Assembly: GCA_040007995.1 (NCBI GenBank)
Contig: JBDTUA010000001.1
Location: forward strand, 19,794-83,793
DNA: 64,000 nucleotides
Direction: 5' to 3'
From: Gemmatimonadota bacterium
GTDB taxonomy: Bacteria; Gemmatimonadota; Gemmatimonadetes; Gemmatimonadales; Gemmatimonadaceae
The position numbers and the translations under genes are program-made. This document shows, in pieces, positions 7,306 to 63,319 of this stretch; positions within the stretch are counted from its first letter, which is position 1, and every line of letters starts with the position of its first letter. A model generated the notes under the pieces. That model was not told the origin of the DNA, ran no database searches, and saw only the letters and a program-made list of their open reading frames with translations.

Positions 7306-7310
7306 CGACG

Positions 7311-9497: not shown

Positions 9498-9498
9498 C

Positions 9499-9912
9499 TC
9501 AATGGCCACGGGACCCTCCTCCGCGCGCCGGGTTGGCGACAGCCAACCCGAGCGCCGCCCGCCCCTTCTCGACCGCAGCACCGGCGGCGGCCGCCGCATC
9601 CGCCGCGTCGGAAAAGACGAAGTCGAGGAGCGCAGCCAGGTTCACGCCCGTCACCACCACCAGGTCGGGACGTTCCCGTTGCAGCCGACGAGCAGCCATC
9701 GTGCAGCTGCCGGCGGGGAGATCGGTGAAGATTACGCCGGCGGACGCCCCGTCGACGGCTTCGCGCAGCGTGCGCTCGACGTCCTGCGCGCTGAGGGCAC
9801 GATTGGACAGGCCGACAAAGACATCGTCGCGACCGGTAATCTGGGTCACCGCGGACAACAGTCCTGCGGCCAGGTCACCGTGCCCCGCGACGACCGCGCG
9901 CGCGCTACTCAT
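9499..9912 (-). CDS. PTS mannose-family EIIA component
   Basis: The MSSARAVVAGHGDLAAGLLSAV N-terminus carries the EIIA-Man active-site His, followed by VIFTDLPAGS. It overlaps the hprK stop by 8 nt. Confidence 0.8.
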   Translation of the reverse strand: MSSARAVVAGHGDLAAGLLSAVTQITGRDDVFVGLSNRALSAQDVERTLREAVDGASAGVIFTDLPAGSCTMAARRLQRERPDLVVVTGVNLAALLDFVFSDAADAAAAAGAAVEKGRAALGLAVANPARGGGSRGH

Positions 9913-10879
9913 CGTCCTGGATGAGGTATCGTCGCACTTCCGCCGCCTTCTGCTGCATGTGTCCCATCAGTCGCTGGTTGAAGATCTCGGCCGGATTCAC
10001 GCCGGCATAGCGCAACAAGTGGTTCATCGCGATCACCTCCGCAATGACGGTGATGTTCTTGCCCGGATTCAGGTACACCGTGATGATCGGGAGCTCGACG
10101 CCGAGGATGGTCGTGAGTTCGCCCTCGAGCCCCGTTCGTTCGACAACCGCGTCTTCCGTCCACTCCATCAGCCGAACGACCACCTCGATGCGCTTCTGCT
10201 GCCGCACCGACCGGATTCCGAAGACCGCGGGCACGTCGATCAGCCCGACGCCGCGAATCTCCATGAAGTGCCGCTGCAGGTGGTGCCCGCTCCCGATGAG
10301 AATCTCGTTGCCGCGCCGGCGTGCGACGACGACATCGTCCGCCACGAGCCGATGGCCACGCTCGACCAGGTCGAGCACGCACTCCGACTTGCCGATGCCG
10401 CTGGCGCCCGTGAACAGTACTCCCACGCCGTACACGTCGGCCAGCGAGCCGTGCAAGGTGGCCGTCGGCGCGAACATGTCCTCGACGAGTGGCTTGGCCC
10501 GACGGTAGAACTCGTTGGTCTTGAGCGAGGATCGGAAGATGGGGACGCCGGCAGCCACTGCGACCTCGAGCATGGGCGGGACGAGGTCGAGCCCCTTGGT
10601 CACGAAGACGCACGGGACGGGGAAGGAGAAGAACAGCTCCAACTGCCGGGAGCGATCCGACGGCGCCAACGAGGCGAGGTAGGTCATCTCGGTTTCGCCG
10701 AACACCTGCGGCCGTTCATGCATGAAGCGGGCGACGAAGCCGGCGAGGGCAAGTCCCGGACTCGACAGGTCCGGATTGGCGACGTCACGGTCGAGACTCA
10801 CCGTGTCGCCGAGCTGCTCCAGCTGCAGCGGCTCCTTGAGGCGCTCGAACAGTCGCCCGACGTTGACGGACCGGTTCAC
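9905..10879 (-). CDS. hprK: HPr kinase/phosphorylase
   Basis: Walker A and signature GVLFTGASGIGKSECVLDLVERGHRLVADD, plus EIRGVGLIDV. The GTG start forms a GTGA overlap with the hpf stop. Confidence 0.9.
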   Translation of the reverse strand: MNRSVNVGRLFERLKEPLQLEQLGDTVSLDRDVANPDLSSPGLALAGFVARFMHERPQVFGETEMTYLASLAPSDRSRQLELFFSFPVPCVFVTKGLDLVPPMLEVAVAAGVPIFRSSLKTNEFYRRAKPLVEDMFAPTATLHGSLADVYGVGVLFTGASGIGKSECVLDLVERGHRLVADDVVVARRRGNEILIGSGHHLQRHFMEIRGVGLIDVPAVFGIRSVRQQKRIEVVVRLMEWTEDAVVERTGLEGELTTILGVELPIITVYLNPGKNITVIAEVIAMNHLLRYAGVNPAEIFNQRLMGHMQQKAAEVRRYLIQDDE

Positions 10880-16250: not shown

Positions 16251-17369
16251 CTACCAGGTCACGCGCAGGCCCAACGATGCGTAGTTCCTCGCATCGTCGG
16301 CCCGGTGTCCGGCAAAGGTGTTGTAGGTGGCGAGCGTTCCGCCGCTCGCCCGGCCTACTTCGGCGACCACGCGCAGCGCCGGCAGGTTGAGCGCCACGTT
16401 TCCGAACACGTTGTGGCGCGTCAGTTCCTGCCGGGCCGCGACCACACTCGACGTCACCGCCGGCACGACGCGATTGATCGTGACCTGGGCGTCCGCGCGC
16501 GTGTCGTAGCGATCCTGCCCGCCGCCGACGGCCAGGCCGAAGACCGAAAAGTTCTTCCCGGCGACAATGCGCCACGCGGTCGTGGACACGCGCACATCGC
16601 GCACGTTCAGTTCGTCGCCGGACACCCGTCCCTGCACGTCGACCGTCGGCAGGTCGCGTTGCAGCCAGGTTACCGAGATGCCGGGCGTCACAAAGGTCTC
16701 GGCGAGCAGCCCGAGGCGTCCGCCGAAGCCGAACTTGAGCGAACCGTCGGGGACGTCGAGCGTGAGGTCGCCCTCGTCTACCGACGGAATGTAAGCGACA
16801 TTGACGAGCACATCGACACCAAGGGCGTAGCTGCCGGCGAATGGAATACCTCGGAAGATGCCGATTGCCGCATCCAGGACCGGGGCGGCAATCCACTGCT
16901 TCTTGACCGCGTAGTCGTTCGACACGGCGCCGGTCGTGGCGGGTGTGCGCTGATCCACCCGCGGCAGGGTTGACGCGAGCACGTTCGCCTTGAGTCCGAG
17001 CGAGAAGTGTCCAAGTCCGCGCAACGAAGAGTGTTCACCAAGGACGGCATTGCCGCCGGTGAGCGTCGCCCCGAGTTGCGGCGCCATGAATTGCAGGAGA
17101 TCGATCGCCTTCTGACAGGCATCCTGCGTGATTCGCTCGTTCGTTGTTCCGGCGCGACATTGCGCATCGATCGCCCCGCCCTGCGCGCGACTCATACCGG
17201 GCGCCGCGAGGAGAGAGAGCACGCACGCCAGACGGGCGGCCCCCACGAGGCGGGGCCCGATGGGGCGAGGGCGAGCGAGTGCCGCTGCCGAGCCGTGCAA
17301 GGTGACTCTGCACGTGCTTCTATCTGTGTGGCCGTGGTCGCGCTGGTCCGTGACTTTCGTTTCCGTCAT
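16251..17369 (-). CDS. Putative outer-membrane beta-barrel protein of unknown function
   Basis: The start MTETKV (ATG 17369) is preceded by AGGAG. A signal-like ARLACVLSLLAAPGMSRAQG is followed by alternating beta-strand-like composition and a C-terminal ...YASLGLRVTW ending in an aromatic residue. I recognise no family. Confidence 0.55.
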   Translation of the reverse strand: MTETKVTDQRDHGHTDRSTCRVTLHGSAAALARPRPIGPRLVGAARLACVLSLLAAPGMSRAQGGAIDAQCRAGTTNERITQDACQKAIDLLQFMAPQLGATLTGGNAVLGEHSSLRGLGHFSLGLKANVLASTLPRVDQRTPATTGAVSNDYAVKKQWIAAPVLDAAIGIFRGIPFAGSYALGVDVLVNVAYIPSVDEGDLTLDVPDGSLKFGFGGRLGLLAETFVTPGISVTWLQRDLPTVDVQGRVSGDELNVRDVRVSTTAWRIVAGKNFSVFGLAVGGGQDRYDTRADAQVTINRVVPAVTSSVVAARQELTRHNVFGNVALNLPALRVVAEVGRASGGTLATYNTFAGHRADDARNYASLGLRVTW

Positions 17370-17400
17370 CTCCAACTCCTGCGCAGGGGAGGCGCCGCGC

Positions 17401-18450
17401 CTAACGGGGAACGAAGCGCACCTGCCCGGTCCCCGGGGCGACCCGGCCGAGCGTCCAGGCACGCACCCCCGCTGCCGACGCCGACGTCAGGATCGACGAC
17501 GCGTCGGCCGGGTCGGCAACGACGACGATTCCTACCCCCATGTTGAAGGCACGATACATCTCCTGCCGATCTACCTGCCCCGCCGCCTCCAGCACACGGA
17601 AGACGTTCGGGATCTCCCACGTGGACGTGTCCACGAGGGCGTCCAGCGTCGCGGGCAGGGCCCGGTTGAGGTTGCCCGGGAGTCCGCCGCCGGTGATGTG
17701 CGCCAGTGCGTGTACGCGTCCGAGCATCGGACGGATCGCAGCGAGGTAAGAGCGGTGCACCCGCAGCAGGACGTCGGCCACGGAGGCCCCGTCTTCGCCG
17801 GGGAACGGGTCGCCGACCGAAAGCCGCATCCGCTCGCTGACGATGCGTCGCGCTAGCGAGTAGCCGTTCGTGTGCAACCCCGAACTCTCCAGGGCGAACA
17901 GGACGTCGCCGTCCGACACTCGGTCGGCGCCTAACGTCTCGCCCTCCTGCACTGTCCCGACGATGAAGCCGGCGAGGTCGTAGTCGGGCGGGGTGTACAG
18001 TCCGGGCATTTCCGCCGTCTCGCCGCCGATGAGGGCGCACTGGTTCTCGCGGCAGCCGGCTGCCACGCCGGCGACCACCGCCTCGACGACGGCCGGGACG
18101 AGGGCGCCGAACGCGACGTAATCGAGGAAGAAGAGCGGCGTCGCCCCCTGCGCCAGGATGTCGTTCACGCAGTGGTTCACCAGGCAGTGGCCGACCGTGT
18201 CGTGCCGATCCGCCTCGATCGCGACCTTGATCTTCGTCCCCACCCCGTCGGCGCTACCGACCAGGATCGGGCTCCCCGCGGTCGGCGCGCGGAACATCCC
18301 GCCGAACGAACCGAACTCTCCGATGCATCCCGCCGTCCTGGTCGACTCCACCAGCTTCCCGATGCGCGTCTTTGCGTCGTCGGCGGCTTCGATGTCGACG
18401 CCCGCACTGCGATAGCTGAGACCCGCTCCCTCGTCTCGTGGCGCACTCAC
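17401..18450 (-). CDS. purM: Phosphoribosylformylglycinamidine cyclo-ligase (AIR synthetase)
   Basis: YRSAGVDIEAADD..., DGVGTKIKVA, HCLVNHCVNDILAQGATPLFFLDY and GGETAEMPGLY are PurM motifs. Confidence 0.95.
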   Translation of the reverse strand: MSAPRDEGAGLSYRSAGVDIEAADDAKTRIGKLVESTRTAGCIGEFGSFGGMFRAPTAGSPILVGSADGVGTKIKVAIEADRHDTVGHCLVNHCVNDILAQGATPLFFLDYVAFGALVPAVVEAVVAGVAAGCRENQCALIGGETAEMPGLYTPPDYDLAGFIVGTVQEGETLGADRVSDGDVLFALESSGLHTNGYSLARRIVSERMRLSVGDPFPGEDGASVADVLLRVHRSYLAAIRPMLGRVHALAHITGGGLPGNLNRALPATLDALVDTSTWEIPNVFRVLEAAGQVDRQEMYRAFNMGVGIVVVADPADASSILTSASAAGVRAWTLGRVAPGTGQVRFVPR

Positions 18451-27915: not shown

Positions 27916-29256
27916 CTATCCGGCCACCGGAAGGGGGCGACGCTGCTGAACAACGGTCCCGGTGAACGTGGATCCGGTTGTCCCGGTCAGTTCGACGGTC
28001 ACGTACTGGCCGATCATCGTCGGGTCGCCGGCGATGAGCACGGTTTTGTAGTCGCGCGACCGCGCCTGCAGCAGGTCGCCACGCCGCGCCAACTTCTCCA
28101 CCAGCACCTCGCGCCGCGCGCCGAGCAACGTCAGGTTGCGCTCGCGAGCACCCGAGCGCACGGTCTCGATCAGGCGACCCAACCGCTCAGACGCGACGTC
28201 GTCGGAGACCGTCCACTCGGCGGGCATTCGAGTCGCGGGCGTGCCGTCTCGCGGCGAGAACTTGAACGTGAACGCATCGTCGAAGCCGACCGCCCGGACC
28301 GCCGACAACGTGTCCTCGAACTCCTCGTCCGTCTCGCCCGGAAAGCCGACGATGACGTCGGTCGTGAGGCCGATGCCTGGAACGCGAGTCCGCAAACGGT
28401 CGACGCAAGCGAGGTAGTCCTCGCGCGAGTATCGCCGCAGCATGCGCTTGAGCATGCTCGTGGACCCGGACTGCATCGGCAGGTGCACATGCTCGCAGAC
28501 GGCGGCGACGTCGCCCATCGCCTCGATGACGGCGTCGCTGAAGTCGTTCGGATGGGGTGAGGTGAAACGCAATCGCCGCAAGCCGGGGACCGCTCCAACC
28601 GCACGCAGCAACTCGGCGAAGTCGTGCAACCCATCGTTGTACGAGTTGACCGTCTGTCCCAGCAGCGTGACCTCGCTGATCCCCTCCTCCACCGCCTGAC
28701 GCGCCTCGCGCACCACGTCGGCCAGTGCGCGACTGCGCTCGGATCCGCGCGTGAACGGCACGATGCAGTAGGTGCATCGGTAGTCGCATCCCCGTTGCAC
28801 CGGGATCCACGCCTTGACCTTGTCGAACCGACGCGGCGCGAAATCCTCGTAGTGCTCCTCGAGATCAAAGGCCGTCTGCACCGGGCGCTCGCCTCCCCTG
28901 GCGCGCGCCACCAGTTCGGGGAGCGCGCGGTAGCCGTCGGGGCCAACGACAAGGCTGACGTGACGAGCCTTCGTCAGGAGTTCGGGGCCGAGTCGTTGTG
29001 CCATGCACCCGGCCACCCCCATCACGCTCCCCGCCCGCATCGACCTCTTCAACTCCCCGAGCCGCCCGATCACCCGCTGCTCCGCGTGGTCGCGAATGGC
29101 GCAGGTGTTGAGCAGGATGACGTCCGCCTCGTTCGGCGTGTCCACCGGGCGGTAGCCTTCGGCCGCGAGCTTGCCGAGTATCAGCTCGGAGTCGCTCACG
29201 TTCATCTGGCATCCGTAGGTCTCGATATAGACCGTGGCGCGTGTGTCGAGCGTCAT
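27916..29256 (-). CDS. miaB: tRNA-2-methylthio-N6-dimethylallyladenosine synthase
   Basis: YIETYGCQMNVSDSE, the radical-SAM CDYRCTYCIVP motif and a C-terminal TRAM domain, in 446 aa. Confidence 0.9.
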   Translation of the reverse strand: MTLDTRATVYIETYGCQMNVSDSELILGKLAAEGYRPVDTPNEADVILLNTCAIRDHAEQRVIGRLGELKRSMRAGSVMGVAGCMAQRLGPELLTKARHVSLVVGPDGYRALPELVARARGGERPVQTAFDLEEHYEDFAPRRFDKVKAWIPVQRGCDYRCTYCIVPFTRGSERSRALADVVREARQAVEEGISEVTLLGQTVNSYNDGLHDFAELLRAVGAVPGLRRLRFTSPHPNDFSDAVIEAMGDVAAVCEHVHLPMQSGSTSMLKRMLRRYSREDYLACVDRLRTRVPGIGLTTDVIVGFPGETDEEFEDTLSAVRAVGFDDAFTFKFSPRDGTPATRMPAEWTVSDDVASERLGRLIETVRSGARERNLTLLGARREVLVEKLARRGDLLQARSRDYKTVLIAGDPTMIGQYVTVELTGTTGSTFTGTVVQQRRPLPVAG

Positions 29257-30480
29257 GCCGAAGCGACGGGAACGAGGGGAGTAGCGACCAACCGATCAGC
29301 GTCGCCCTGGAGCCGCATGCGATGCCGCGTGCCGCGTGGAGGCGCCGGTTCGGCGATGGCGACCGAAAGATAGTCCTCCGTCATCCCCTCGCGGGTATCG
29401 CCCCGCAGCACCACGAGATCTGCCTCCCCTCCGAGGCGCCGCGCTCGATGCTGTCGTGCCTTCGCGTCACCGCGCGCGCGCAGTTCGCGCGCGCGTCTGC
29501 ACCACGGCGCCGTGGAGATGGCCTGGGAGGCGCTCGGCCGCGGTTCCCGGACGGCGCGAGAAGGGAAAGACGTGCAGATAGGTGAACGGCAACGCCTCGA
29601 TCATGTCGATCGTGGCACGGTGATCGGTGTCGCTTTCACCAGGGAATCCGGCGATGACGTCGGCCCCCAGGCCGAAGACGGGGAGGTCGCGAGCGATGCG
29701 CTCCACGGCGAGCGCATAGTCGCGCGCCGTGTACCAGTGTCGACCCATGCGTCGCAGCACCCGGTCGCTCCCCGACTGCAGCGGCGCGTGCAGGTGCGGC
29801 ACGAGGTGCGCGGGCTCGCTGAGCCGCTGGTCCACCTCCGTCGCCTCCACCGATGACAAGCGGAAGCGCGCAGTCGGCACATCGCGCACCAGGCGCTCGA
29901 CGAGCTCTCCCAGCGAAGTCCCCGTGTCCGCTCCGTAGGTTCCGATGTGAATGCCTGTCAGCACGATTTCGGAGTGGCGCTCCGCCAACCGTTCTGCCTC
30001 CTCGACCAGACTCTCGATCGGCCGCGCGCGATTGACGCCGCGCGCCAGTGTCGTCGCGCAGAAGGTGCAGTGTTCATCGCATCCGTCCTGGATGCGGAGC
30101 AGCGCGCGCGTTGCGTGCTGCTGTCGAGCCGGGCCTAACGCGGACGCCGGCAAGGCGAGCGCGCGCGCCACGTCGGCGACGTCGCCGCCCGGCACCACAT
30201 GCGAGACCGAGGGGAGCGTGCGCAGCGTCCCGTCGTCGCGCGCCGCAGCACATCCCATCACCACGGATACCACACCTGGCGCGTCGCGTGCCACCCGGCG
30301 CACGCTCTTGCGCAGTTCAGCCTCGGCATCGGCGGTCACCGCGCAGGAGTTGAAGATGGCGACGTCGGCCTGGTCGGGGCGCTCCACCACCTCGCCTCCC
30401 GAACGCTCGATCATCGCGCGCACCGTCTCCGAATCGTACTGGTTGGCGCGACAGCCGAACGTACGCAGGAAGACCTTCAC
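29253..30480 (-). pseudogene. mtaB: MtaB-like radical-SAM methylthiotransferase with its reading frame interrupted at a (CG)5 tract (frameshift or sequencing error)
   Basis: The track ORF 29467..30480 (FGCRANQYDSE, NSCAVT, CDEHCTFC) stops at ...AVVQTRARTARAR*. In the other frame the sequence continues (R)ARELRARGDAKARQHRARRLGGEADLVVLRGDTREGMTEDYLSVAIAEPAPPRGTRHRMRLQGDADRLVATPLVPVASA*, a TRAM-like tail. The tail's TGA (29255-29253) forms an ATGA overlap with the miaB start. The total length of 1228 nt is not a multiple of 3. Confidence 0.65.
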
Positions 30481-31664: not shown

Positions 31665-32807
31665 TCATGGACGGACGGTGAATCCAACGCTCAGGAGCCA
31701 CGCGCGCTCCTTGGTCGGTACGGTCGCCTGACGCAATGCGCGTTGGACGGCCAGGTCGAGCGTCCCGCGCGGACCGGCGATGGGGATCGCGACGCCGCCC
31801 GAGACGATCTTCTCATGGACCAGCGCCCCGGCCGCCTCGAACGGCAGGTCGCGCTGGCGATACCCGAGGGCGTACATCCAGGCCGTGTTCCGCGTGCGTT
31901 GTCCGGCAAACTGTGCCCCGGCCGAGTATTCCCACGCGTCCTGCGCCGACGCGTCGGTCGAGCCCAGTCCGTTCAGCTTCGACCACGCGTTGTGATCGGC
32001 GCCCGCCAGGAGGGTGAGCCCGTCCACCGGCTCGAGTCGGGCCGCGAAGCCAAAGCGCGTGGGCACCTTGGCCTCGGTGCGAAGCGTATCGACGACGCGA
32101 AGCTTCATGGTGCCGCCTTGCCGGAATGATCCCGCCAGGGCGAGCCACTTGGTCGGCGAGAGCACGACGCCGGCCGACGCGGCTGTTCCGCTGTAGGTCA
32201 GCGTGATGTCGCGGGCCAACGTTCCGAAGCGCACGCTGTCGTCGAACTGCCGCACCAGGTTCAAGCGATTCTCGCCGGAGAAGAGGTGCACTCCTGCCCC
32301 GATCACCATGCGGGGAAAGAGGCGGTACGCTACGCCGATCCGGTTGTCGTTGATTCCGCCGCGCGAGACGAAGCTCTCCGTGTAGGAAACGCTGTCGTCA
32401 CCCAGGCGCTGCCCGGAACGGATGGTGGTCGACCACGAGCGGTCGAGGAACGCGTGGCTCGACAGCCCCACGGCCCAGCGCTGCCCGATGGTGAAACCGG
32501 CGGCGATGGTTCCGAAGCGTGCGGTCGTGGTGTGATCGGTCGCACTCGCACTCTCGACCGTTCGAAGTTCGGGATCGTACTGCACGTACAGGCCGGAGCG
32601 TCCCCACCCGGTGAGCGCCGACGGGTTTCGCGAGGAGAGCGGATCGAACTCGCTCAGCGCGCCGCCGGTGGCGGCCGCACGCGTGCTGAGCCCTCCGAGC
32701 GGATACCCAAATCCCTGTGTGCTGAGCGTCCCCTGCGCGCGCGCCGACGCTGCCCCCCCGACGAACAGGGCGACGGCAATGGCGAACGGACCAATGCGAG
32801 CACGCAT
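31665..32807 (-). CDS. Putative outer-membrane beta-barrel protein (FadL/OMPP1-like by appearance only)
   Basis: The start MRARIGPFAIAVALFVGGAASARAQG gives a signal peptide. It is followed by Gly/aromatic-rich alternating strands and a C-terminus ...WLLSVGFTVRP. The start shares one base with the stop of the upstream lipoprotein gene. Confidence 0.55.
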   Translation of the reverse strand: MRARIGPFAIAVALFVGGAASARAQGTLSTQGFGYPLGGLSTRAAATGGALSEFDPLSSRNPSALTGWGRSGLYVQYDPELRTVESASATDHTTTARFGTIAAGFTIGQRWAVGLSSHAFLDRSWSTTIRSGQRLGDDSVSYTESFVSRGGINDNRIGVAYRLFPRMVIGAGVHLFSGENRLNLVRQFDDSVRFGTLARDITLTYSGTAASAGVVLSPTKWLALAGSFRQGGTMKLRVVDTLRTEAKVPTRFGFAARLEPVDGLTLLAGADHNAWSKLNGLGSTDASAQDAWEYSAGAQFAGQRTRNTAWMYALGYRQRDLPFEAAGALVHEKIVSGGVAIPIAGPRGTLDLAVQRALRQATVPTKERAWLLSVGFTVRP

Positions 32808-34084
32808 CACGGGATCCCGAAGCTGGTGCGCAGCGCGTAACTCACGCGCAGGCGCGGGCGCAGCGCCGTCGGCGCCTCCCGCGAGGAAAGATGGAACTCG
32901 AACGGGCTGGTCCCTTCGCGCGTGGAGCGCAGGACGAGCACCTTCTGCTGCGGAATCGTGGCGGCGTTCGCCGAGGCCCACTGGCGCACCGCCGTCGCCA
33001 CCTCGAGCACTCGCGCCCCGCTATCGCCAGGCGCAACGCGTAGCGTGTCGAAGGCGAAGCCGGCCAGCAGCAACGCCGATCGCGTCACGTCGGTGACCTC
33101 CTCAGTCGCCAGCGAGATCTCGGGTACGATCGCGATAGAGTCGCGCGGGTCGATGGTGCGATTGGGCTGCTGCGTGAACATCAGTGTCGCCCGCAGCACG
33201 GTCGACGAGTCGAGGATGCGCGACGGGATGACGAAACGAAGGAAGGCGCGCTTGTTCGGAATGCCGCCGACGGCCAGGATGGCGCCCGTGGGCGGCGCCG
33301 GCGCAGCAGCAACGATGGTGTAGTCGAGATAGTCGCCCGAGACCACCGTGTTGAACGGCGGCGTATTCGAGACGGGAAAGACACCAATGGCCTTGATGGC
33401 GGTGTCCTCCGGCGCCGGGTCGAAGCGCAGGATCGGGCTCCCCCCGCCCTCGATCGACGCGAGGTCGAGTTCAGCGCCCGCGGCCGCGGTCACCTTGATG
33501 CCGACGCGAAGCCGCTTTTGTCCGGTGATCTTGCCGAGCAGCTTCGCGTTGTTGAAGAACACCTTGATCGAATCCTTCACCTGCGCCGAGTCAAACGTCG
33601 TGCCGCCGATGAGCCGATCGGGTCGAAACAGCGACAGCACGACGGCGTTCACCGTGTCGGCTTCCGCCGTGTCCACATCGAAGAGGTCGACTCGAACGCT
33701 CCCTCGGATATGTGTCGAGGTCGCGTTCACGAGGAGGGCGAGGTACGCGCTGTCCAACCGCGTGATCGCCGAGTCGGCGCCCCCCGAGAGAAACGTGGTG
33801 GGTAGCGAGTCGAATCGCACCACCGCTCGCACGTCGAGGGTGTCGCCCCGACTCGCAAGGTAGAGCGATCCCTCGGTCCCGAAGCCGGGAATCCCCAGCA
33901 CGGTGGTGTCGAACGACACCGCATCGAGCGTGGTGTCGAAGACCGCGAGGTTCTGGCCCGAACACAGAATCGGACAGGCGGCCCCGCTCTCCAGGTCTTC
34001 TCCGCACGCCACCACCCCCGCCACCATCGCGGCGCCGAGCAGCAAAGGGCGCGCGCGCTTAAGCCAATCTCGTAACACGAGCAT
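32807..34084 (-). CDS. Hypothetical lipoprotein (425 aa), no recognised domain
   Basis: A signal with a lipobox (LLLGAAMVAGVVAC) and a beta-rich body. Coupled to the downstream OMP gene. Its start overlaps the eutN-like gene by 26 nt. Confidence 0.5.
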   Translation of the reverse strand: MLVLRDWLKRARPLLLGAAMVAGVVACGEDLESGAACPILCSGQNLAVFDTTLDAVSFDTTVLGIPGFGTEGSLYLASRGDTLDVRAVVRFDSLPTTFLSGGADSAITRLDSAYLALLVNATSTHIRGSVRVDLFDVDTAEADTVNAVVLSLFRPDRLIGGTTFDSAQVKDSIKVFFNNAKLLGKITGQKRLRVGIKVTAAAGAELDLASIEGGGSPILRFDPAPEDTAIKAIGVFPVSNTPPFNTVVSGDYLDYTIVAAAPAPPTGAILAVGGIPNKRAFLRFVIPSRILDSSTVLRATLMFTQQPNRTIDPRDSIAIVPEISLATEEVTDVTRSALLLAGFAFDTLRVAPGDSGARVLEVATAVRQWASANAATIPQQKVLVLRSTREGTSPFEFHLSSREAPTALRPRLRVSYALRTSFGIP

Positions 34085-34346
34085 CTATGTCGAAGCTGTC
34101 CACAATGGCCATGATCACGGCGTCCACCGGGCGGTCCTTGGTGACCGCGGTCAGGCGCGCCGAGCTTCCCGTCGCATACAACACCACTTCTCCACGTCCT
34201 GCGCCGACACTGTCGACCGATACAACGTATCCCCCTTCGCGCTCCAACGTCGTGGAGAGATTCTCCACGATGAGCAGGGCGAGCGACTGCAGCGACGGAT
34301 CCTTACGCGTCGACACCACGCTCCCGATCACTCGCCCCATCTTCAT
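34059..34346 (-). CDS. EutN/CcmL-family bacterial microcompartment vertex protein (BMC-P), orphan
   Basis: [27 protein letters not shown]...[22 protein letters not shown]...[15 protein letters not shown] matches the EutN/CcmL pattern over the whole 95 aa. ATGA overlap with cdd. Confidence 0.85.
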
Positions 34347-34762
34347 TCGTGCGCCAGCGTCGCCGGGGTGAAAGGCGCCGGGAGCAGCTCACGCAACGAC
34401 CAGCGCGCCGTCGCACCACCGGCGGTCACACTCACTACGACGAGTTCCGGGGCAAATTCCATCAGCACCTGCCGACAGATGCCACAGGGAGGCGTCGGAT
34501 GCTGGGCTTCGGTCGCGACGACAATCGTCGAGAATTCGCGCACGCCGGCCACGACAGCACTCGCGACGGCGCTCCGCTCCGCGCAGAGGCCGGCGGGATA
34601 CGACGAGTTCTCCACGTTGCAGCCGCCAAAGACGCGGCCATCCTCAGTCCGGAGCGCGGCGCCGACCCGGAAGCCGGAGTAGGGCGCGTACGCCTGCGAC
34701 ATGGCCGCCTGCGCCGTCGCCACGAGCCCCGCGATGTCGTCGCGTCCCTCGGGAACGCTCAC
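34343..34762 (-). CDS. cdd: Cytidine deaminase
   Basis: [14 protein letters not shown]...[19 protein letters not shown]...PCGICRQVL are the zinc-ligand motifs. I chose GTG 34762, which forms a GTGA overlap with the deoB stop. Confidence 0.9.
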
Positions 34763-35940
34763 GCGATAATCTCCGGGAGGAACGAGCTCCCTGGACCTCG
34801 AAACGAAAGGCCGAACCACTCCGACACGGTCGCCCCGACATCCGCAAACGACTGGCGCTCGGGGAGCCGCACCGGACGCACCGACGATCCCGCGATCAGC
34901 ACCGGGACCCGCTCGCGCGCGTGGTCGGTCGACGGTGTCGTCGGGTCGTTGCCGTGGTCGGCGGTGATGAACAGGAGATCGTCCTCGCGGAGGGCGGAAA
35001 GCAGGGATGGCAGCGCACGATCAAACTGCCGCAGAGCTCCGTAGAACCCCGCGACATCGTTTCTGTGCCCGTAGAGCTGGTCGAAATCTACTAGGTTGGC
35101 GAAGAGGAACCCACTCTCCTCCCCCACCATCCACTCGCGAATGTGGGCGATGCCGTCGGCATTGTCCGCAGTGTGCTGCGATGTGATGGCTCGTCCGGCG
35201 AAGAGGTCGTCCACCTTTCCCACCCCCTCGCGCCGAATCCCGGCCTGCGCCAGTGCGTCGAGCAGCGTTTCGCCGACCGGCGCGATGGAGAAGTCGCGAC
35301 GTCGGGGGGTGCGCCGAAACCCCTCAACGACAGTGCCCTCGAACGGCCGCGCGATGACCCGCGAGACGTCGTTCGGCGCCACCAGCATCGCCCGCGCCGC
35401 CTCACAGGCACGATACAGCTCGTCGAGCGGGACGACCGCCTCGTGCGCCGCCACCTGGAAGACCGAATCGGCCGAGGTGTACACGATCAGCCCGCCGCCA
35501 CGAACCTGCTCGGCGCCGAACCTCTCGATGATCGCGGTACCGCTCCCGACGACGTTGCCGATCACCGGGCGCCCCGTTAGGCGTGCAAACTCCGCGATCG
35601 CATCGGGCGGGAATCCCTGCGGAAACGTCGGGAACGGGCGATCCAGCACCACCCCGCAGAGTTCCCAGTGCCCGGTGGTGCTGTCCTTGCCGGCCGACAC
35701 CGGCTGCAGGCTCGTGCGCGCCGCCGCGCCGACCACGTCGGCGCTCAACCCCTGGATGGGGGCCAGCGTGCCCAGGCCTAACGACTCGAGATGCGGGAGA
35801 TCGAAGCCGCCGACTGCACGCGCGGTGTTGCCTAGGGTATCGCTCCCCGCGTCGCCGTAGGCGGAGGCGTCGCGCGCCCCGCCGATGCCGACGCCGTCGA
35901 GGATGAGCAGGACCGCCCGGCGACCGGTCGTGCCGCTCAT
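34759..35940 (-). CDS. deoB: Phosphopentomutase
   Basis: [14 protein letters not shown]..., TTGHWEL and ...[10 protein letters not shown] are DeoB metal-binding motifs. The start MSGTTG (35940) forms an ATGA overlap with alr. Confidence 0.9.
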
Positions 35941-37019
35941 ATCGTCCCGCCGGCATAGCGGCGTGGGACTCGTAGCCGCAGGCCGACCAGCAGTTCGTAG
36001 GGAGACAACTCCGCGCAACGCGCCACGCTATTCATGTCGAGCAGTTCGTCACCGTCACCCCCGATGAGCGTTGCCACATCGCCGACCGCGCACGGCACGT
36101 CAGTAACGTCCAGCATGGTCATGTCCATCGTCACCATGCCGGCAACCGACACACGTCGCCCATTCACCAGCGCCTCCCCGCGATTCCCTAGCGAGCGCCG
36201 GTAACCGTCTGCGTACCCGCAGGCGATCGTCGCAATGCGTCGCGGACCGTCGGCGCGATAGGTCGCCGAGTAGCTGACCGTATCGCCCGGGTGAATCGTG
36301 CGCAGCTCGACAATACGGGCACGCAAGGACGCCACGTGCACCGGTTGCACCGTCGAGCCCTCCTCGCCGCCGACCCCGTAGAGAAATACACCCGGCCGCA
36401 CGGCGCTCCACGGCGAGGGCGACTGGCGCTCGATGCTCGGACTGTTTTCGGCGTGCAGGAAAGCGATCTTGGCGCCAAGCGCGTCCAACGCCCCGCGAAA
36501 GCGACCTTGCTGCTCTTCCATCGACCCGTCGTTCCGCTCCGCGCTGTGGAAATGCGTGAAGGCGCCCGACGGTGGATGCGCCCGCACCAGCGCAGCGACG
36601 GTCGCGACCTCACGCCATGGAATCCCCGCCCGGTTCATCCCCGTGTCGATCGCCAGGTGCCAATCGCCCCCTCCACCCTCGATCCACGCCTGAATTGCGG
36701 CAGGATCGCCAAACGTCGGGACCAGTCCCAGACGACGAACCTCGCCGAATTCGTTCTGGAGCAAGGGCGTGAAGACGAGGATCGGGCGTCTGATCCCCGA
36801 CGCGCGCAGCGCCTCACCCTCGCGAACCGCCGCGATGCCGAAACCCCAGACATCGAGCGACTCGAGCGCGCGCGCTACCTCCACTGCGCCGAGTCCGTAG
36901 GCATCGGCCTTGACCATCGGGAGCAGGGGTCGGCCGGCGCGAGCGGCCATCGTACGGGCGTTCTGTCGTAACGCGCCGAGGTCGATGTCGAGCCAGGCGC
37001 GTCGCGTATCGGCTTCCAT
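35937..37019 (-). CDS. alr: Alanine racemase
   Basis: AWLDIDLGALRQNARTM...LPMVKADAYGLGA carries the PLP-lysine motif VKADAYG, followed by a C-terminal beta domain. Confidence 0.9.
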   Translation of the reverse strand: MEADTRRAWLDIDLGALRQNARTMAARAGRPLLPMVKADAYGLGAVEVARALESLDVWGFGIAAVREGEALRASGIRRPILVFTPLLQNEFGEVRRLGLVPTFGDPAAIQAWIEGGGGDWHLAIDTGMNRAGIPWREVATVAALVRAHPPSGAFTHFHSAERNDGSMEEQQGRFRGALDALGAKIAFLHAENSPSIERQSPSPWSAVRPGVFLYGVGGEEGSTVQPVHVASLRARIVELRTIHPGDTVSYSATYRADGPRRIATIACGYADGYRRSLGNRGEALVNGRRVSVAGMVTMDMTMLDVTDVPCAVGDVATLIGGDGDELLDMNSVARCAELSPYELLVGLRLRVPRRYAGGTI

Positions 37020-40006: not shown

Positions 40007-41497
40007 ATGCTGCGCACGCGCCTGGCGCTCGGCATCGGCGGGATCGTGGCGCTGATGCTCGTGCCGGTGATCCTGTCGATCGCGTCGATGCTCGAGGTCC
40101 GGGACGACACCGTGAGCATCCGAGACGTTGAGTTCCGCGCGGCTGTGGTCCTCGGCAAGGTGCGCGCGGCCGTGCAGGAGCTCGACCAGACCAAGGACTA
40201 CTTGTCGATCCTTCCGGAGGAGACGACACGGACGCAGTTCAACCAGCGATTGGCAACGGTTCGCGCCCTCGTCGACTCGCTCGGCGCGGTGCGCGGCATG
40301 ACGGCGATCAGCCGGGTCCGAGGCTCGCTCGACATCATCGGCGAGGAGTCGGAGCGTGCACACCAACTTGCGGCAGCGGGTCGCGCGTCGATCGCCGACT
40401 CGGTCATCGATCGCATGATCACGCCGGCCATCGACAACATCGAGCGTATCATCATCCTCTCGGAGCAGTCGTTGCAGGACCGCACGCGCGAGCGGGTCAA
40501 TGACATCGCCGAGGCCTCCGTCCACTCGCGGAACACGTCGATCGAGCTGCTCGGGGCAGCCGCGATCCTTGCCGTCCTGATCGGCCTCTGGCTCACGCAA
40601 TCCGTTTCGCGACCGATCAATGAGCTGGACGCCGGCATGCGCGCGGTCGCCGAGGGCGACTTCGGGCACCCGTTGCAGCTCGCGCCCCAGCGGCGGGACG
40701 AATTTGGACGGCTGGCCAAGTCCTACAACTCGATGGCCACCCAGTTACGTGAACTCGATCGGCTCAAGGCGGAATTCATCTCGGTCGCCTCGCACGAACT
40801 CAAGACGCCGATCAACGTCGTCATGGGATACCTGCAGCTCCTTCAGGACAACGTCTACGGCGAGCTCAACACGCGGCAGCGAGAGATCATCGGGACGCTG
40901 ACGGCGCAGAGCAAGTCGCTCTCCCGACTCGTCCGTCAGCTGCTCGACGTCTCGCGCTTCGAGGCAGGTGGCGGCAAGGTCGAGCCGCGCGCCTTCCCGC
41001 TCCCCGCCTTCCTCGGCGACTTGGAGCGCACGTTCCGGGTGCTGGCCATCCAGCGGAACGTCGCCCTCGTGGTGACGCGCGGACCCGAACTCCCCGCGGA
41101 AGTGCGATGGGATCCCGAGCGGATCAACGAGGTGCTCGGTAACCTCCTGTCCAACGCCTTCAAGTTCACGCCGAGCGGCGGGCGCGTCTCGCTCGAGGTC
41201 GATCGTCAGCGAGACGGGGTCACGATGCGCGTGAAGGACACCGGCGCAGGGATCCCGGCAACCGAAGTGGCGTATGTGTTCGAGAAGTTCTACCAGGCCG
41301 ACAACCAGACGACCGGCATCAAGGGGACCGGGCTTGGTCTCGCGATCGCCAAGGGGATCGTCACTGCGCACGGCGGAACGATCGGCGTCGAGAGCGTCGT
41401 GGGAATCGGGACGACGTTTACGCTGCACCTGCCGGTGCAATCGTCGGCCACACGGCTCGCACCCTTTCACCCGCCCGAGGAGGCGACGGTCGCATGA
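40007..41497 (+). CDS. Sensor histidine kinase (two TM helices, periplasmic helical domain, HAMP, HisKA, HATPase_c)
   Basis: The start is MLRTRLALGIGGIVALMLVPV. It has a HAMP domain (SRPINELDAGMRAVAEGDFG), an H-box (SHELKTPIN), an N-box (LGNLLSNAFKFT) and G-boxes (DTGAGIP, GTGLGLAI). Confidence 0.85.
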   Translation: MLRTRLALGIGGIVALMLVPVILSIASMLEVRDDTVSIRDVEFRAAVVLGKVRAAVQELDQTKDYLSILPEETTRTQFNQRLATVRALVDSLGAVRGMTAISRVRGSLDIIGEESERAHQLAAAGRASIADSVIDRMITPAIDNIERIIILSEQSLQDRTRERVNDIAEASVHSRNTSIELLGAAAILAVLIGLWLTQSVSRPINELDAGMRAVAEGDFGHPLQLAPQRRDEFGRLAKSYNSMATQLRELDRLKAEFISVASHELKTPINVVMGYLQLLQDNVYGELNTRQREIIGTLTAQSKSLSRLVRQLLDVSRFEAGGGKVEPRAFPLPAFLGDLERTFRVLAIQRNVALVVTRGPELPAEVRWDPERINEVLGNLLSNAFKFTPSGGRVSLEVDRQRDGVTMRVKDTGAGIPATEVAYVFEKFYQADNQTTGIKGTGLGLAIAKGIVTAHGGTIGVESVVGIGTTFTLHLPVQSSATRLAPFHPPEEATVA

Positions 41498-42087
41498 AGC
41501 AAGTCACTCTCCGCCGCCGCGCCCATCGCTGGCGACGAGCAGCGACACTGCTGGGACTCGTAGCGGGCCCGCTCGCGGTCGGCTGCCGACGCGCGCCGCC
41601 CGCTCCTCTCCCCGCCCCGATCGTACAGCTTATTGCCGCTCCCCCCGCACCGATTTCGCCGTGGCCCGGCACCCTGGCCACCGCGTTGCGCGCCGCCGAG
41701 AGCGGGCGGTTCGCCGAATCGGAGCGAATTCTCACCGACTTCGGGCTTGCCAACCCAGCGACGCCGGAAGGGGCGGAAAGCGATTTCTGGCGCGCCTTGT
41801 TGAAGACGGATCCCGCCAACCGCGCGGTGACGCCGCGCGAATCGATGGCGCTGTACGACTCCTATCTCAGTGGCGGTACGTCGCAGCCACGCTACGCCGA
41901 AGCGTTGATCCTGCGACGAGTCGTGGAGTCGATGGACTCGACGCGCGCGCTGCTGGCAACGGTGCGTGCCTCAGCCGACGCGCGCGAGAAATCGCGCGAC
42001 GAGGAGATCCGCCGACTGAACGATGTCGTCGACCGGACGACGGCCGAGCTGGAACGCATCAAGCGCCGGCTGATTCCGAAGCCGTAG
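41494..42087 (+). CDS. Hypothetical lipoprotein with a C-terminal coiled-coil, translationally coupled to the kinase
   Basis: ATGA overlap with the kinase stop. It has a lipobox-like LVAGPLAVGC and a C-terminal ...REKSRDEEIRRLNDVVDRTTAELERIKRRL. I recognise no family. Confidence 0.5.
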   Translation: MKQVTLRRRAHRWRRAATLLGLVAGPLAVGCRRAPPAPLPAPIVQLIAAPPAPISPWPGTLATALRAAESGRFAESERILTDFGLANPATPEGAESDFWRALLKTDPANRAVTPRESMALYDSYLSGGTSQPRYAEALILRRVVESMDSTRALLATVRASADAREKSRDEEIRRLNDVVDRTTAELERIKRRLIPKP

Positions 42088-45418: not shown

Positions 45419-47227
45419 CTACCGGAGACCGATCCGTCGACGCAGCAGCCACTCCGCACAAAGGGAGAGCAGCGCGATCGTGAAGAGCCACGACATCTCC
45501 CGGGCACGCGGCGCTTCCCCAAGTGTCACGCCATTCCCGAGTGCCCCTTCGCGCACCGTGCGCCGGCGCGGAAGCAACTCGGCCGAGGGATTCACGACGA
45601 GGAGGGAGACGCCGCCGGCCGTCTGCACGTCATACACGCCGGGCACCGGCGCGGGCGTCGAGGTGGAGTTGTTCCCGGCGCCGAATCGCAGGACGAGCGA
45701 GTCGCGCGTCCCCCCGCCGCGCCTAACGACCGACGCGCGGACGACGCTGTCGCGGCCGACGCCGCGGCGCCAATGCACGGCGTCACCCGCGCGAACCGCG
45801 GCGGCCACCGGGTATGCCGCGCGCGCATCGGCGCGGTCGCCTGCGAGCCAATCGAGGATGCTCCCCCAGACGGCAGTGAAGGCATCGCTTCCTACCCCAC
45901 CGCGAAAGCGCCATCGCCAGAATCCCGACGCTGCGGCGACCACGACACGGCGGGGCTGCTCCCAGCCGACAATCGCCACGCGCTGGTCAAGACGTCGCGA
46001 GCGGCGCGTCTCGAGGATCGAGAATTCCGCGTTGCTCGGGAGCGTCGCGCTCACGTCGAGCGGCGGCAGCGAGTCCCACGCCGTGCCACTGAGCGGCGTG
46101 CTGACCGGCGAAAGCGGCGCGCCAGTGGCGAACCATTCGCCCTGTGACGTCTGCGGCGGCGCAATGAGCGCAAGTGCACCGCGCGTGACCTGTCGCGGTG
46201 CCCCAAAGAGCGCCGTATCACCATGAAGGACGACGATCGGTGACTCGCGGACGGCGCGTCGCACGACGTCCTCGCTCACCGGACGCAGCGTCACGTCCTC
46301 GCGCCACTGTCCCGGCGCGACGCGAAAATAAGCGCGCGTCGGAAGCATGACCGTTCCGCGAAGCAGCGCGGCCAGTTCTCGCGAGTCGAGGTCGGGGGAC
46401 GTCGACACCAGCACCGCCGCAGCGCCCGCAGTCAGCTCGAGCACCGCGGCCGCCGAATTGTTCTCCGGCTCGGTGTCGTCGGCCGTCTTCACGCTGGCGC
46501 GAAGCTCGCTCGGCGCGCTCCCCGAGGGAGCCACGAATTTGAGCGTGACCGTCCGCTCCCCGTCGGCAGGGAGCGCGTCGAAGGGAACGCGCGCGACTGA
46601 TCGTCCCGCGAGCTCGAGCTCGAGCGTCCCGGTGGACGCCCCCCCTTCTCCAGCACCGACGGTCACCCGAACGTCGACGGTATCGCCGGCGGCGGCCACC
46701 CGCGGGGCGCTGACGTCAAGAATGGCAGCATCGCGTGTCGTAGCCGCGCCACTGAGTACTACGCGCGACCCGGCGGGAAGCGACTGCAGCGCCTCCGGGT
46801 CGTCGATCTCACCGTCGGTGTACAGCACGAGCGGGCGACCAGCCGCCATCGCTCGCTCCGCCGCCGGCCGCACCCGTGATGCGCGGTCCATATCGGTTAC
46901 CGATGTGTTGGCCAGTCGAAGCGAGTCGCCGAAGACGAAGAGTGAATCGCCTGCGTCCTTGCGCGCGGCGGCACGCGCCGCGGCACGTGCCGAGACAAAG
47001 GCCGAGGAGTCACGACCACGTCCCCACGACGCCGACGCGTCGAGCGCGACGAGCGGACTCGGCACGCGCCGCGCGCCGAGCACGGCGTTCAGGGCCAACG
47101 CCACCAGACTGGTAACCGACAAGGCACGGAGCGCGGCGGTGAAGATGCGACCAGGTGCGCGCGCACGCGCATACGACGCCAGTGCGCTCGCAATGCCGGC
47201 GGTGAGAGCGATGAGCCAGGAGATCAT
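45419..47227 (-). CDS. Hypothetical membrane protein (N-terminal double-TM, large extracytoplasmic region, C-terminal TM anchor)
   Basis: MISWLIALTAGIASALASY...LSVTSLVALALNAVLG at the N-terminus and ...WLFTIALLSLCAEWLLRRR at the C-terminus. It looks Bat/aerotolerance-like, but I cannot confirm that. Confidence 0.5.
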   Translation of the reverse strand: MISWLIALTAGIASALASYARARAPGRIFTAALRALSVTSLVALALNAVLGARRVPSPLVALDASASWGRGRDSSAFVSARAAARAAARKDAGDSLFVFGDSLRLANTSVTDMDRASRVRPAAERAMAAGRPLVLYTDGEIDDPEALQSLPAGSRVVLSGAATTRDAAILDVSAPRVAAAGDTVDVRVTVGAGEGGASTGTLELELAGRSVARVPFDALPADGERTVTLKFVAPSGSAPSELRASVKTADDTEPENNSAAAVLELTAGAAAVLVSTSPDLDSRELAALLRGTVMLPTRAYFRVAPGQWREDVTLRPVSEDVVRRAVRESPIVVLHGDTALFGAPRQVTRGALALIAPPQTSQGEWFATGAPLSPVSTPLSGTAWDSLPPLDVSATLPSNAEFSILETRRSRRLDQRVAIVGWEQPRRVVVAAASGFWRWRFRGGVGSDAFTAVWGSILDWLAGDRADARAAYPVAAAVRAGDAVHWRRGVGRDSVVRASVVRRGGGTRDSLVLRFGAGNNSTSTPAPVPGVYDVQTAGGVSLLVVNPSAELLPRRRTVREGALGNGVTLGEAPRAREMSWLFTIALLSLCAEWLLRRRIGLR

Positions 47228-55821: not shown

Positions 55822-57200
55822 CAGGACGCTCCTCGGGCAGCCGCCGCGAAGGCGCGCCCTCGCTCTTCGTAATTGTTGAACATGTCGAAACTCGAGCACG
55901 CGGGCGCGAGAAGCACCGCGTCACCTGGGCGCGCCAGCGCGCGGGCGCGCGCGATCACCAACGCGAAATCCCCATCGACGCGGTGCACGGCCGCCCGTCC
56001 TGCGAGGTCCGCCTCGATCCGAGCCGCCGCCTCGCCATAGGCGATGACGTGCCGGCAGTGGCGAGCCACCGAGTCGCCGAGCGCTGTGTACGGTTCTCCC
56101 TTGTGACGTCCGCCGAGCAACAGGACCGTCGGGCGCGTCATGCTCTCGATCACCACGCGCGACGCCGCGATATTCGTGGCCTTCGAGTCGTTGATCCAGA
56201 CTACGCCTCCGACATCGGCGACCGTCTCCAACCGATGTGGCGGGGGGTGGAAACCGCGCAAGGCAGTTGCCAGTCGGTCCCGGTCATCGAGGCTTTCGTG
56301 CGCCGAGTCCGCGGTCATCACGGCCAGCACGGCCGCCAGCGCATTGGCGACATTGTGGTCGCCGAGCAGTGGGAGTTCGTGACGTGGCAGCAGTTCCTTG
56401 TCGCGTACGATCAGCCGGCGCGTCCCCGCTCCACCGAGAAAGGCATCAGCCAGTCGCCCCGAGACGGCGAAGCGGTGCTGCACGCCACGAACGGGCCGAA
56501 CCATTGCCATGACCGCGGGGTCGTCGGCGTTCACGACCCACCGCGAGGCGTTGGTGGCGTGACGCAAGAGCAGCGCCTTGTCGGCATAGTAGTCCTCGAC
56601 ACGGTCGTATCGATCGAGGTGGTCGGGGGACAAGTTCGTGATCACCCCGACGGCCGGGTTGATCGAGGGCGTGTCATGAAGCTGAAAAGACGAGAGTTCA
56701 AGCGCCACCCACGCTGGAGGAGTGCGTCGCAACGCCACCTCACTCAGCGGCATGCCGATATTTCCGGCGGCCACGGCGTCCTCACCAACGCCTCGCAGCA
56801 GGTGCGCGATCAGCGCGGTGACGGTCGTTTTCCCGTTCGTCCCCGTGACGGCGATGTAGCGCAGTCCGGGCATGACCGCGAGCCCCAGTTCGATCTCGCT
56901 GATGACCGGTACGCCGGCCGCGTGCGCGGCGGTGAGCGGGGCAGCGTCGGGCGGAACGCCCGGGCTGGCGACGACGAGCGACGCGTCGGCGATGCGTCGG
57001 ATGTCGTGGCCGCCGACCTGGGCATCGACGCCGAGCGCTGCCACCACTGCCCCCTGCGCCGCAACGGAGGCGCCCCTGCCGGCATCGGACGCGTAGACGC
57101 GCGACCCGAGACGACGCAGCAGGGTGCTGGCGGCCGTCCCGCTGCGCCCGAGTCCGACGACGGCTATTTCGCCCCGCGTCCACTCGTAAGGCGGCGTCAT
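55821..57200 (-). CDS. murD: UDP-N-acetylmuramoylalanine--D-glutamate ligase
   Basis: VVGLGRSGTAA, VTGTNGKTTVT and Mur ligase domains. The start MTPPYEW (57200) forms an ATGA overlap with mraY. Confidence 0.9.
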   Translation of the reverse strand: MTPPYEWTRGEIAVVGLGRSGTAASTLLRRLGSRVYASDAGRGASVAAQGAVVAALGVDAQVGGHDIRRIADASLVVASPGVPPDAAPLTAAHAAGVPVISEIELGLAVMPGLRYIAVTGTNGKTTVTALIAHLLRGVGEDAVAAGNIGMPLSEVALRRTPPAWVALELSSFQLHDTPSINPAVGVITNLSPDHLDRYDRVEDYYADKALLLRHATNASRWVVNADDPAVMAMVRPVRGVQHRFAVSGRLADAFLGGAGTRRLIVRDKELLPRHELPLLGDHNVANALAAVLAVMTADSAHESLDDRDRLATALRGFHPPPHRLETVADVGGVVWINDSKATNIAASRVVIESMTRPTVLLLGGRHKGEPYTALGDSVARHCRHVIAYGEAAARIEADLAGRAAVHRVDGDFALVIARARALARPGDAVLLAPACSSFDMFNNYEERGRAFAAAARGAS

Positions 57201-58339: not shown

Positions 58340-58351
58340 AGAATGGTTTTA

Positions 58352-58367
58352 GAAGACGAGAAGACGA
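58352..58367 (-). repeat. Two tandem copies of the same 8-bp unit (GAAGACGA / UCGUCUUC) in the murF-mraY spacer
   Basis: Read directly: agaagacgagaagacgatcg. The minus-strand leader reads ...UCGUCUUCUCGUCUUCUAAAACCAUUCU GUG (mraY start). Confidence 0.8.
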
Positions 58368-58380
58368 TCGCGCTGCGCGA

Positions 58381-63301: not shown

Positions 63302-63319
63302 GAGATCTCTGCCGTCTCC

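Follow-up and report, generated by a model that had tools for sequence, protein, structure and literature searches.

In the bacterial microcompartment (BMC) catalog of Sutter et al. 2021 (PMC8217296), the fragmented type FRAG8 comprises seven loci, mostly from Gemmatimonadetes, whose components are dispersed over several sites of the genome: a DeoC-type enzyme, a standard hexameric shell protein (BMC-H), a green/grey/orange triplet of pentameric vertex proteins (BMC-P) and sometimes an aldehyde dehydrogenase (AldDh). In its BMC-P tree, a 95-aa 'paleGreen' BMC-P of Gemmatimonadetes GWC2_71_9 (A0A1G0L335) carries the label 'FRAG8 (sat)'. Axen 2014 described a Gemmatimonadetes single-cell locus of the sugar-phosphate-utilisation (SPU) type, which holds a nucleoside ABC transporter, cdd, PduL, AldDh, RpiB, DeoC, BMC-H and three BMC-P. 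Here we describe a lone BMC-P gene (34059-34346, minus strand) in a 64,000-nt stretch of a Gemmatimonadota genome (GCA_040007995.1, contig JBDTUA010000001.1, positions 19,794 to 83,793), hereafter the window, whose own numbering is used throughout. We lean towards reading it as a satellite vertex gene of a FRAG8/SPU-like fragmented, deoxyribose-phosphate-type microcompartment, kept coupled to the cytidine deaminase gene cdd and the phosphopentomutase gene deoB. The locus is most likely a new, well-conserved example of an already catalogued fragmented BMC type rather than a new kind of system.

With FRAG8 the locus shares the phylum and a 95-aa BMC-P that stands alone, as the catalogued paleGreen satellite does, and the SPU-type DeoC enzyme of FRAG8 fits the deoB and cdd neighbours of the window gene. 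It differs in that the FRAG8 BMC-H, grey and orange BMC-P, DeoC and occasional AldDh are not in the window, which holds only the green member. The clade of the window BMC-P is also the one that SPU and HO loci draw on, and nucleoside-salvage genes lie beside shell genes both in the Gemmatimonadetes SPU locus and in a Lentisphaerae locus described below; SPU loci, however, are compact, with DeoC, RpiB, AldDh, PduL, BMC-H and three BMC-P, whereas the window has a single BMC-P. The BMC-P of the Haliangium ochraceum shell (5V74, 6MZX) has two blocks identical to those of the window protein, VGAGxGEVVLYA.GSSARQT and RPVDA.IMAIVD, but it is encoded in a genome with a defined shell-gene set and has been seen in an assembled shell. 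Finally, the BMC-P pairs of Ignavibacteria and Melioribacteraceae (FRAG1/PVM-like satellites) resemble the window locus in that a green-clade BMC-P directly follows deoB, BMC-H is absent within 10 kb, and BMC-P and deoB conservation stand in a similar ratio; they differ by their second BMC-P and by lacking cdd, alr and bamH/bamG as neighbours. Melioribacter roseus, for its part, is recorded with 5 BMC-H and 7 BMC-P over five loci. A satellite BMC locus in the sense of Axen 2014 and Sutter 2021 is contiguous, holds a single shell-protein class and accompanies a main locus with BMC-H and BMC-P elsewhere in the same genome. The window, with one BMC-P and no PF00936 in 64 kb, fits the first part of this definition, as do 54 related loci; the main locus would lie outside it.

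A full-length vertex protein gene without other shell genes

The 95-aa open reading frame (ORF) matched PF03319 with 100.8 bits (cut-off 25) along the whole domain, from position 1 to position 83 of the 83-position profile. It is real and intact and encodes a genuine full-length BMC-P of the green clade, in agreement with the EutN/CcmL assignment given in a preliminary description of the window. That description was also right about the coordinates, the ATGA overlap with cdd, the 26-nt overlap with a downstream lipoprotein gene and the gene order. Although the best NCBIfam match was the CcmL model (NF053795), its 83.2 bits fell short of the cut-off of 125, and the scores for EutN (NF011992; 53.8 vs 118), CsoS4A (TIGR02703; 42.4 vs 120) and CsoS4B (37 vs 89) were likewise below their cut-offs. 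With all four equivalog thresholds unreached, the protein is therefore a BMC-P but none of the named ones.

The closest solved relative was the H. ochraceum BMC-P of the intact shell 5V74 (87 bits, 58% identity over 83 residues), and at this identity we expect the truncated-pyramid fold of a pentamer. The AlphaFold2 monomer had a mean pLDDT (predicted local distance difference test) of 40.9, too low to be of use, from a shallow alignment of 19 near-identical sequences. The protein carries the edge motif GAGRGE, and the form G[AS]Gxx[ED] is kept in all 55 Gemmatimonadota sequences compared. A 2026 review (PMC13370225) equates GAGxGE with the CsoS4A motif, in which the acidic residue and glycine contact Arg and Lys of BMC-H at the pentamer-hexamer interface. 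No signal peptide was read in the sequence. An identical protein is annotated from a Gemmatimonadota metagenome-assembled genome (MAG), and the best 120 database matches are all 95 aa long and 78-100% identical, those with names being mostly Gemmatimonadaceae. Many Joint Genome Institute (JGI) entries call this BMC-P family 'microcompartment protein CcmK/EutM', a hexamer name (e.g., P0004 and P0015), and BMC-H entries 'CcmL/EutN'; the two labels appear to be swapped in these annotations.

Searches of the window for further shell genes were negative. By tblastn with PduA, CcmK2 and EutM queries no BMC-H match fell under E = 0.3, a BMC-H hidden Markov model (HMM), searched with its filters disabled through every six-frame segment 30 aa or longer, reached no better than E = 2.1, and the BMC-P HMM matched the eutN ORF (as we call the vertex gene here) and no second BMC-P. 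The two approaches agree with the earlier claim that BMC-H and BMC-T genes are lacking in the 64 kb. The companion claim for aldehyde dehydrogenase and PduL was borne out among the 46 window genes scanned with Pfam, where PF00171 and PF06130 were absent; the same scans found no PF01791 (DeoC), PF00936, RpiB, RuBisCO or carbonic-anhydrase family, and for the genes at 57197-63778 the survey consisted of the shell-domain HMM scans. PF01791 was also absent from the gene tables of six further loci (L001-L006).

Relatives from other phyla reside in shell loci, several beside genes of nucleoside catabolism

To place the protein, orthologs were scanned in one genome per GTDB species, and the best 80 loci were listed, comprising 54 from Gemmatimonadota (L007-L059 and L061) and 26 from elsewhere. 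Every one of the 26 loci from outside the phylum (55-66% identity) has more shell genes within 10 kb; BMC-H is present in 15 loci, and the remainder have two or three BMC-P. In a neighbour-joining tree, all Gemmatimonadota proteins formed one short-branched clade within the green BMC-P group, alongside the 5V74 protein. Where other loci have a second or third BMC-P paralog, these fell into clades of their own. These relationships argue firmly for descent of the window BMC-P from a shell-locus BMC-P.

Genes of nucleoside catabolism accompany several of these relatives, so that deoB and cdd are linked to BMC-P in other phyla as well. A Lentisphaerae MAG (L082, 5562-13323, plus strand) carries, in order, BMC-H, BMC-P, AldDh, BMC-T, two BMC-P, deoB, genes for a pyrimidine-nucleoside phosphorylase and a PNP/UDP-type phosphorylase, and cdd, which together make up a compact locus for a nucleoside-to-acetyl-CoA microcompartment. 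In eight loci of Ignavibacteria, Melioribacteraceae and Bacteroidota, deoB immediately precedes a BMC-P pair, and BMC-H is absent within 10 kb. Since nucleoside genes recur in the Lentisphaerae locus, in these eight loci and in the SPU locus of Axen 2014, the linkage of deoB or cdd to this BMC-P clade is old and a trait of deoxyribose-phosphate (SPU-like) microcompartments. As a separate observation, one Melioribacteraceae MAG (L069, 8163-11429, plus strand) has a 98-aa ORF and a PIN-domain gene, likely a toxin-antitoxin pair, between deoB and the BMC-P pair, and a sigma-70 gene after the pair.

A connection to the catalog came through GWC2_71_9. A profile built from high-GC Gemmatimonadales orthologs retrieved the EutN of this genome (P0244 = OGT93351.1), which is 95 aa long and 74% identical to the window protein. 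Its gene lies in a deoB-cdd-eutN array with the same 4-nt overlap, and identical copies on groundwater contigs show the order alr-deoB-cdd-eutN-lipoprotein. The catalog label implies a main BMC locus elsewhere in the GWC2_71_9 genome.

We then set 55 Gemmatimonadota proteins against 27 green BMC-P taken from shell loci. Wherever the shell-locus proteins were conserved at 60% or more, the Gemmatimonadota proteins never had a different conserved residue instead, and the two blocks named above for H. ochraceum are common to both groups. The Gemmatimonadota clade has in addition an invariant stretch of its own, E-N-L..L..E-G-G-Y (EutN residues 27-39; 34230-34266), in a region that is variable in shell-locus BMC-P. 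Using deoB as a clock, median identities were 77% for BMC-P vs 69% for deoB in Ignavibacteria and 77% vs 63% in Gemmatimonadota; over the same range of deoB divergence, the Gemmatimonadota BMC-P reached 82%, slightly above the 77% of the satellite BMC-P of Ignavibacteria. By this measure, the selective regime of the Gemmatimonadota gene appears to resemble that of known satellite BMC-P.

The vertex gene is embedded in a conserved overlapping operon

All genes of the run lie on the minus strand. It begins with the alanine racemase gene alr (35937-37019; TIGR00492, 236 bits; PF01168 and PF00842), which is followed by deoB (34759-35940; 393 aa from the ATG at 35940; NF003766, 460.8 bits against a cut-off of 256) and cdd (34343-34762; 139 aa from the GTG at 34762; TIGR01354, 144.6 bits against 113.65). 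Downstream of eutN come a putative BamH-like surface-lipoprotein gene (32807-34084; 425 aa; lipobox VVAC, then acidic GEDLES) and a gene for a FadL-family outer-membrane β-barrel protein (OMP; 31665-32810; about 381 aa), BamG-like by its profile matches to BamG chains. Read from the sequence, alr and deoB share ATGA, deoB and cdd share GTGA, and the cdd stop lies on the eutN start in a further ATGA; the 3' end of eutN overlaps the start of the lipoprotein gene by 26 nt, and the lipoprotein and OMP genes meet at GTGATG, where they share 4 nt or 1 nt according to which start codon is taken. After the OMP gene, a 6-nt gap leads to a hybrid histidine-kinase/receiver gene. An internal terminator splitting eutN from its neighbours was ruled out, as the 6.6 kb contain one weak hairpin, fewer than shuffled sequence. 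Since the minus strand holds about 50 of the 54 called ORFs of the window, and 4-nt overlaps between adjacent genes are common, a shared orientation by itself says little about operons here.

The arrangement recurs throughout the 54 listed Gemmatimonadota genomes, each with one ortholog (62-90% identity to the window BMC-P). All of them keep the order alr-(deoB)-(cdd)-eutN-lipoprotein-OMP on one strand, usually followed by the kinase gene, and alr is upstream of eutN in every locus long enough to show it. The vertex gene thus keeps the same slot in the relatives, in which the preliminary description had proposed to check the cdd-eutN-lipoprotein synteny. The 4-nt overlap of cdd and eutN is found in 45 of the 50 loci that bear cdd (of the other five, two are separated by 1 or 7 nt and three had junctions that the script did not parse). 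Both deoB and cdd are missing in three loci (L036, L039 and L048), where eutN follows alr by about 108 nt, and deoB alone is missing in six more. Every genome has an intact ORF, at 62-98% identity and with short branches over an order-level clade, and in all 34 complete loci EutN is better conserved than the other five operon proteins (median identities to the window counterparts: EutN 76%, Alr 56%, DeoB 64%, Cdd 57%, lipoprotein and OMP 35% each). The vertex protein is under strong purifying selection within a conserved overlapping operon.

A probable satellite of a dispersed microcompartment and its alternatives

The preliminary description had left two readings side by side, a satellite vertex gene co-regulated with a pathway feeding a BMC encoded elsewhere and a BMC-independent use of the pentamer fold next to envelope proteins. 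The tie to nucleoside and deoxyribose catabolism is the better supported of the two, given the homologs of other phyla that lie in shell loci, some with deoB or cdd, and the GWC2_71_9 ortholog. If it holds, the ORF product would be a functional BMC-P pentamer that caps shell vertices, acting as the green-clade member with two other BMC-P paralogs and with BMC-H hexamers encoded elsewhere in the genome. The source genome would accordingly be expected to carry BMC-H and cargo genes outside the window, and the window protein, judged by its relatives, would assemble as a pentamer into that shell. In the proposed cargo chemistry, DeoC would turn deoxyribose-5-phosphate into acetaldehyde, on which aldehyde dehydrogenase would then act. 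The vertex gene would still be attached to two cytosolic enzymes that act just ahead of the DeoC step, Cdd converting (deoxy)cytidine to (deoxy)uridine and DeoB converting deoxyribose-1-phosphate to deoxyribose-5-phosphate, and it may be translated in step with cdd through the ATGA overlap.

Several points weigh against a satellite of this kind. In none of the 54 listed Gemmatimonadota genomes (about 0.8 Mb) is the gene accompanied within 10 kb by BMC-H or a further BMC-P, and the window itself lacks BMC-H, BMC-T and a second BMC-P, together with the AldDh, PduL, DeoC and PF00936 families in the Pfam scans. The invariant neighbours are alr and the BamH/BamG-like pair, deoB and cdd being the genes lost in some loci, and the operon looks constitutive or housekeeping rather than inducible or catabolic. 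The gene is widespread in Gemmatimonadales, but the 2021 catalog holds only the seven FRAG8 loci. A search with an HO-type BMC-H returned no Gemmatimonadota name among its best 120 matches (the named ones were Myxococcota, Deltaproteobacteria and Eiseniibacteriota), a result that is uninformative because BMC-H is about 90% identical across phyla. Lastly, A0A1G0L335 and OGT93351.1 are almost certainly the same protein, but we equate them by genome, length and clade and not by sequence; if they are the same, the locus type is already filed as a fragmented-BMC satellite, in at least one genome with BMC-H elsewhere.

The strongest competitor is a pentamer that works without a shell. Most of the Gemmatimonadales that carry the gene would then have lost BMC-H or never had it, and the protein would serve in the cytosol, for instance in scaffolding or regulation, and be produced constitutively alongside Alr, DeoB, Cdd and the subunits of the β-barrel assembly machinery (BAM). 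We regard this as a tentative possibility. It draws on the constant presence of exactly one BMC-P without nearby BMC-H in the listed genomes, on the embedding of the gene by overlapping frames among essential-type genes, on its top rank in conservation in 34 of 34 loci, on the higher identity at equal deoB divergence than in the Ignavibacteria satellites, on the clade-specific invariant stretch in an otherwise variable region, and on the small number of Gemmatimonadetes BMC loci in the catalogs. Set against these, the family-consensus positions are unsubstituted, including an edge motif with no known role beyond hexamer contact; the selective regime is like that of satellite BMC-P in lineages that have BMC-H; at least one genome with the ortholog, GWC2_71_9, is catalogued with a FRAG8 shell; and no such function of PF03319 was found in the literature searched, Sutter 2021 (PMC8217296) calling the fold unique to BMCs. 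That Gemmatimonadales devoid of BMC-H should keep a consensus-unchanged vertex pentamer for a cytosolic job is in our view unlikely, and it would be the first documented BMC-independent use of PF03319. Two observations fit a joint occurrence of BMC-P and BMC-H, and with it the satellite reading: GWC2_71_9 has both according to the catalog, and Gemmatimonas aurantiaca T-27 is absent from a 2014 table of genomes with PF00936 or PF03319, which suggests that it has neither; the lack of any cultured Gemmatimonas among the best 80 loci listed is a weak observation.

A physical partnership of the pentamer with the downstream lipoprotein and OMP in an envelope function has in its favour the invariant eutN-lipoprotein-OMP order and the overlapping frames, but we consider it very improbable. 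Searched against PDB, the OMP family profile matched BamG chains of the Bacteroidota BAM complex, 9hiv_F (4e-23) and 9n2d_B 'Bam G' (2e-18), followed by the FadL-type TbuX; the NCBIfam BamG model (NF053685) gave 79 bits, under its cut-off of 250. The lipoprotein had no sequence match in Pfam, NCBIfam or PDB, its family profile gave nothing meaningful against PDB up to E 10, weak DNRLRE-domain matches occurred in only two orthologs, and a single-sequence AlphaFold2 model had an unusably low pLDDT of 31. Acidic residues right after the lipid-anchor cysteine are a mark of Bacteroidota surface lipoproteins (Nature Microbiology paper), and the BamG-like gene directly follows the lipoprotein gene with a 1-4 nt overlap in nearly all related loci with a resolvable junction. 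BamG and BamH are reportedly essential in Flavobacterium johnsoniae and shared by most phyla of the FCB (Fibrobacterota-Chlorobiota-Bacteroidota) superphylum, and their genes are adjacent in G. aurantiaca (BamG GAU_1453, BamH GAU_1452), Salinibacter, Fibrobacter and Caldithrix (PMC12611786 Suppl. Table 1). The two genes downstream of eutN are thus probably the bamH/bamG pair of an FCB-type BAM complex, an identity that by itself would explain the invariance of the downstream genes without a link to the pentamer. In addition, the EutN-type protein has no signal peptide whereas its supposed partners carry a lipobox or signal peptide and belong to the outer membrane or surface, G. aurantiaca has the adjacent pair but is missing from the 2014 PF03319 list, and no PF03319 subunit figures in the descriptions of the solved BAM complexes. 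The envelope suggestion of the preliminary description has therefore gained little.

The isolation of the gene from other shell genes and the CcmL model as top NCBIfam match (83 bits) might speak for a non-functional remnant, a duplicate in decay or a CcmL of carboxysomes, but all of these are scarcely credible. The ORF is intact and its protein the best conserved of the operon in 34 of 34 genomes, contrary to the decay that had been named as a possible refutation. A carboxysome was rejected on CcmL and CsoS4 scores below every cut-off and on the lack of RuBisCO-type or carbonic-anhydrase families among the window genes scanned.

Other features of the window

Elsewhere in the window, the Pfam survey identified a dcw cell-division cluster, ftsY, recG, asnS, mazG, a riboflavin operon, nusB and argS, as well as methylmalonyl-CoA mutase, fructose-1,6-bisphosphatase (FBPase), comEC, metK, two MiaB-like enzymes and a mannose-type phosphotransferase system (PTS) with HprK and PtsI. 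The two MiaB/RimO-like radical-SAM methylthiotransferase genes (27916-30480, minus strand; UPF0004 plus Radical_SAM, with TRAM in the first only) adjoin each other after the hybrid kinase gene, as a pair that L001 and L002 also keep. The mannose-family PTS (5542-10879, minus strand) is complete, with IIA, IIB, IIC and IID next to HPr kinase and Enzyme I, here in a Gemmatimonadota genome. A cobalamin riboswitch (RF00174, 73 bits; 1962-2076, minus strand) lies upstream of a periplasmic-binding-protein gene (822-1856; PF01497), which is probably a B12-regulated uptake component. Four ORFs with high third-position GC had no Pfam match: 2112-3494, 16251-17462 and 45419-47227 on the minus strand and 41494-42087 on the plus strand (460, 403, 602 and 197 aa, respectively).

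Implications for microcompartments of Gemmatimonadales

The operon context of the lone BMC-P, from alr to the bamH/bamG-like genes, did not appear in the text and searched supplement parts of the Sutter 2021 catalog, and within the literature searched, where the two Kerfeld-lab catalogs were the only relevant works, it is not described. A satellite identity would be useful for annotation, as the family is now named CcmL, EutN and even CcmK in databases. Should BMC-H prove absent from the carrier genomes, the assumption that the PF03319 fold is unique to microcompartments would be overturned, and the gene would offer a clean, conserved case for learning what a lone pentamer does. If instead the gene is a satellite, as we favour, it would show a fragmented microcompartment that keeps one vertex gene translationally coupled to its substrate-supplying enzymes, and the little-studied FRAG8/SPU-like organelles would extend to a large part of the Gemmatimonadales of soil and water.

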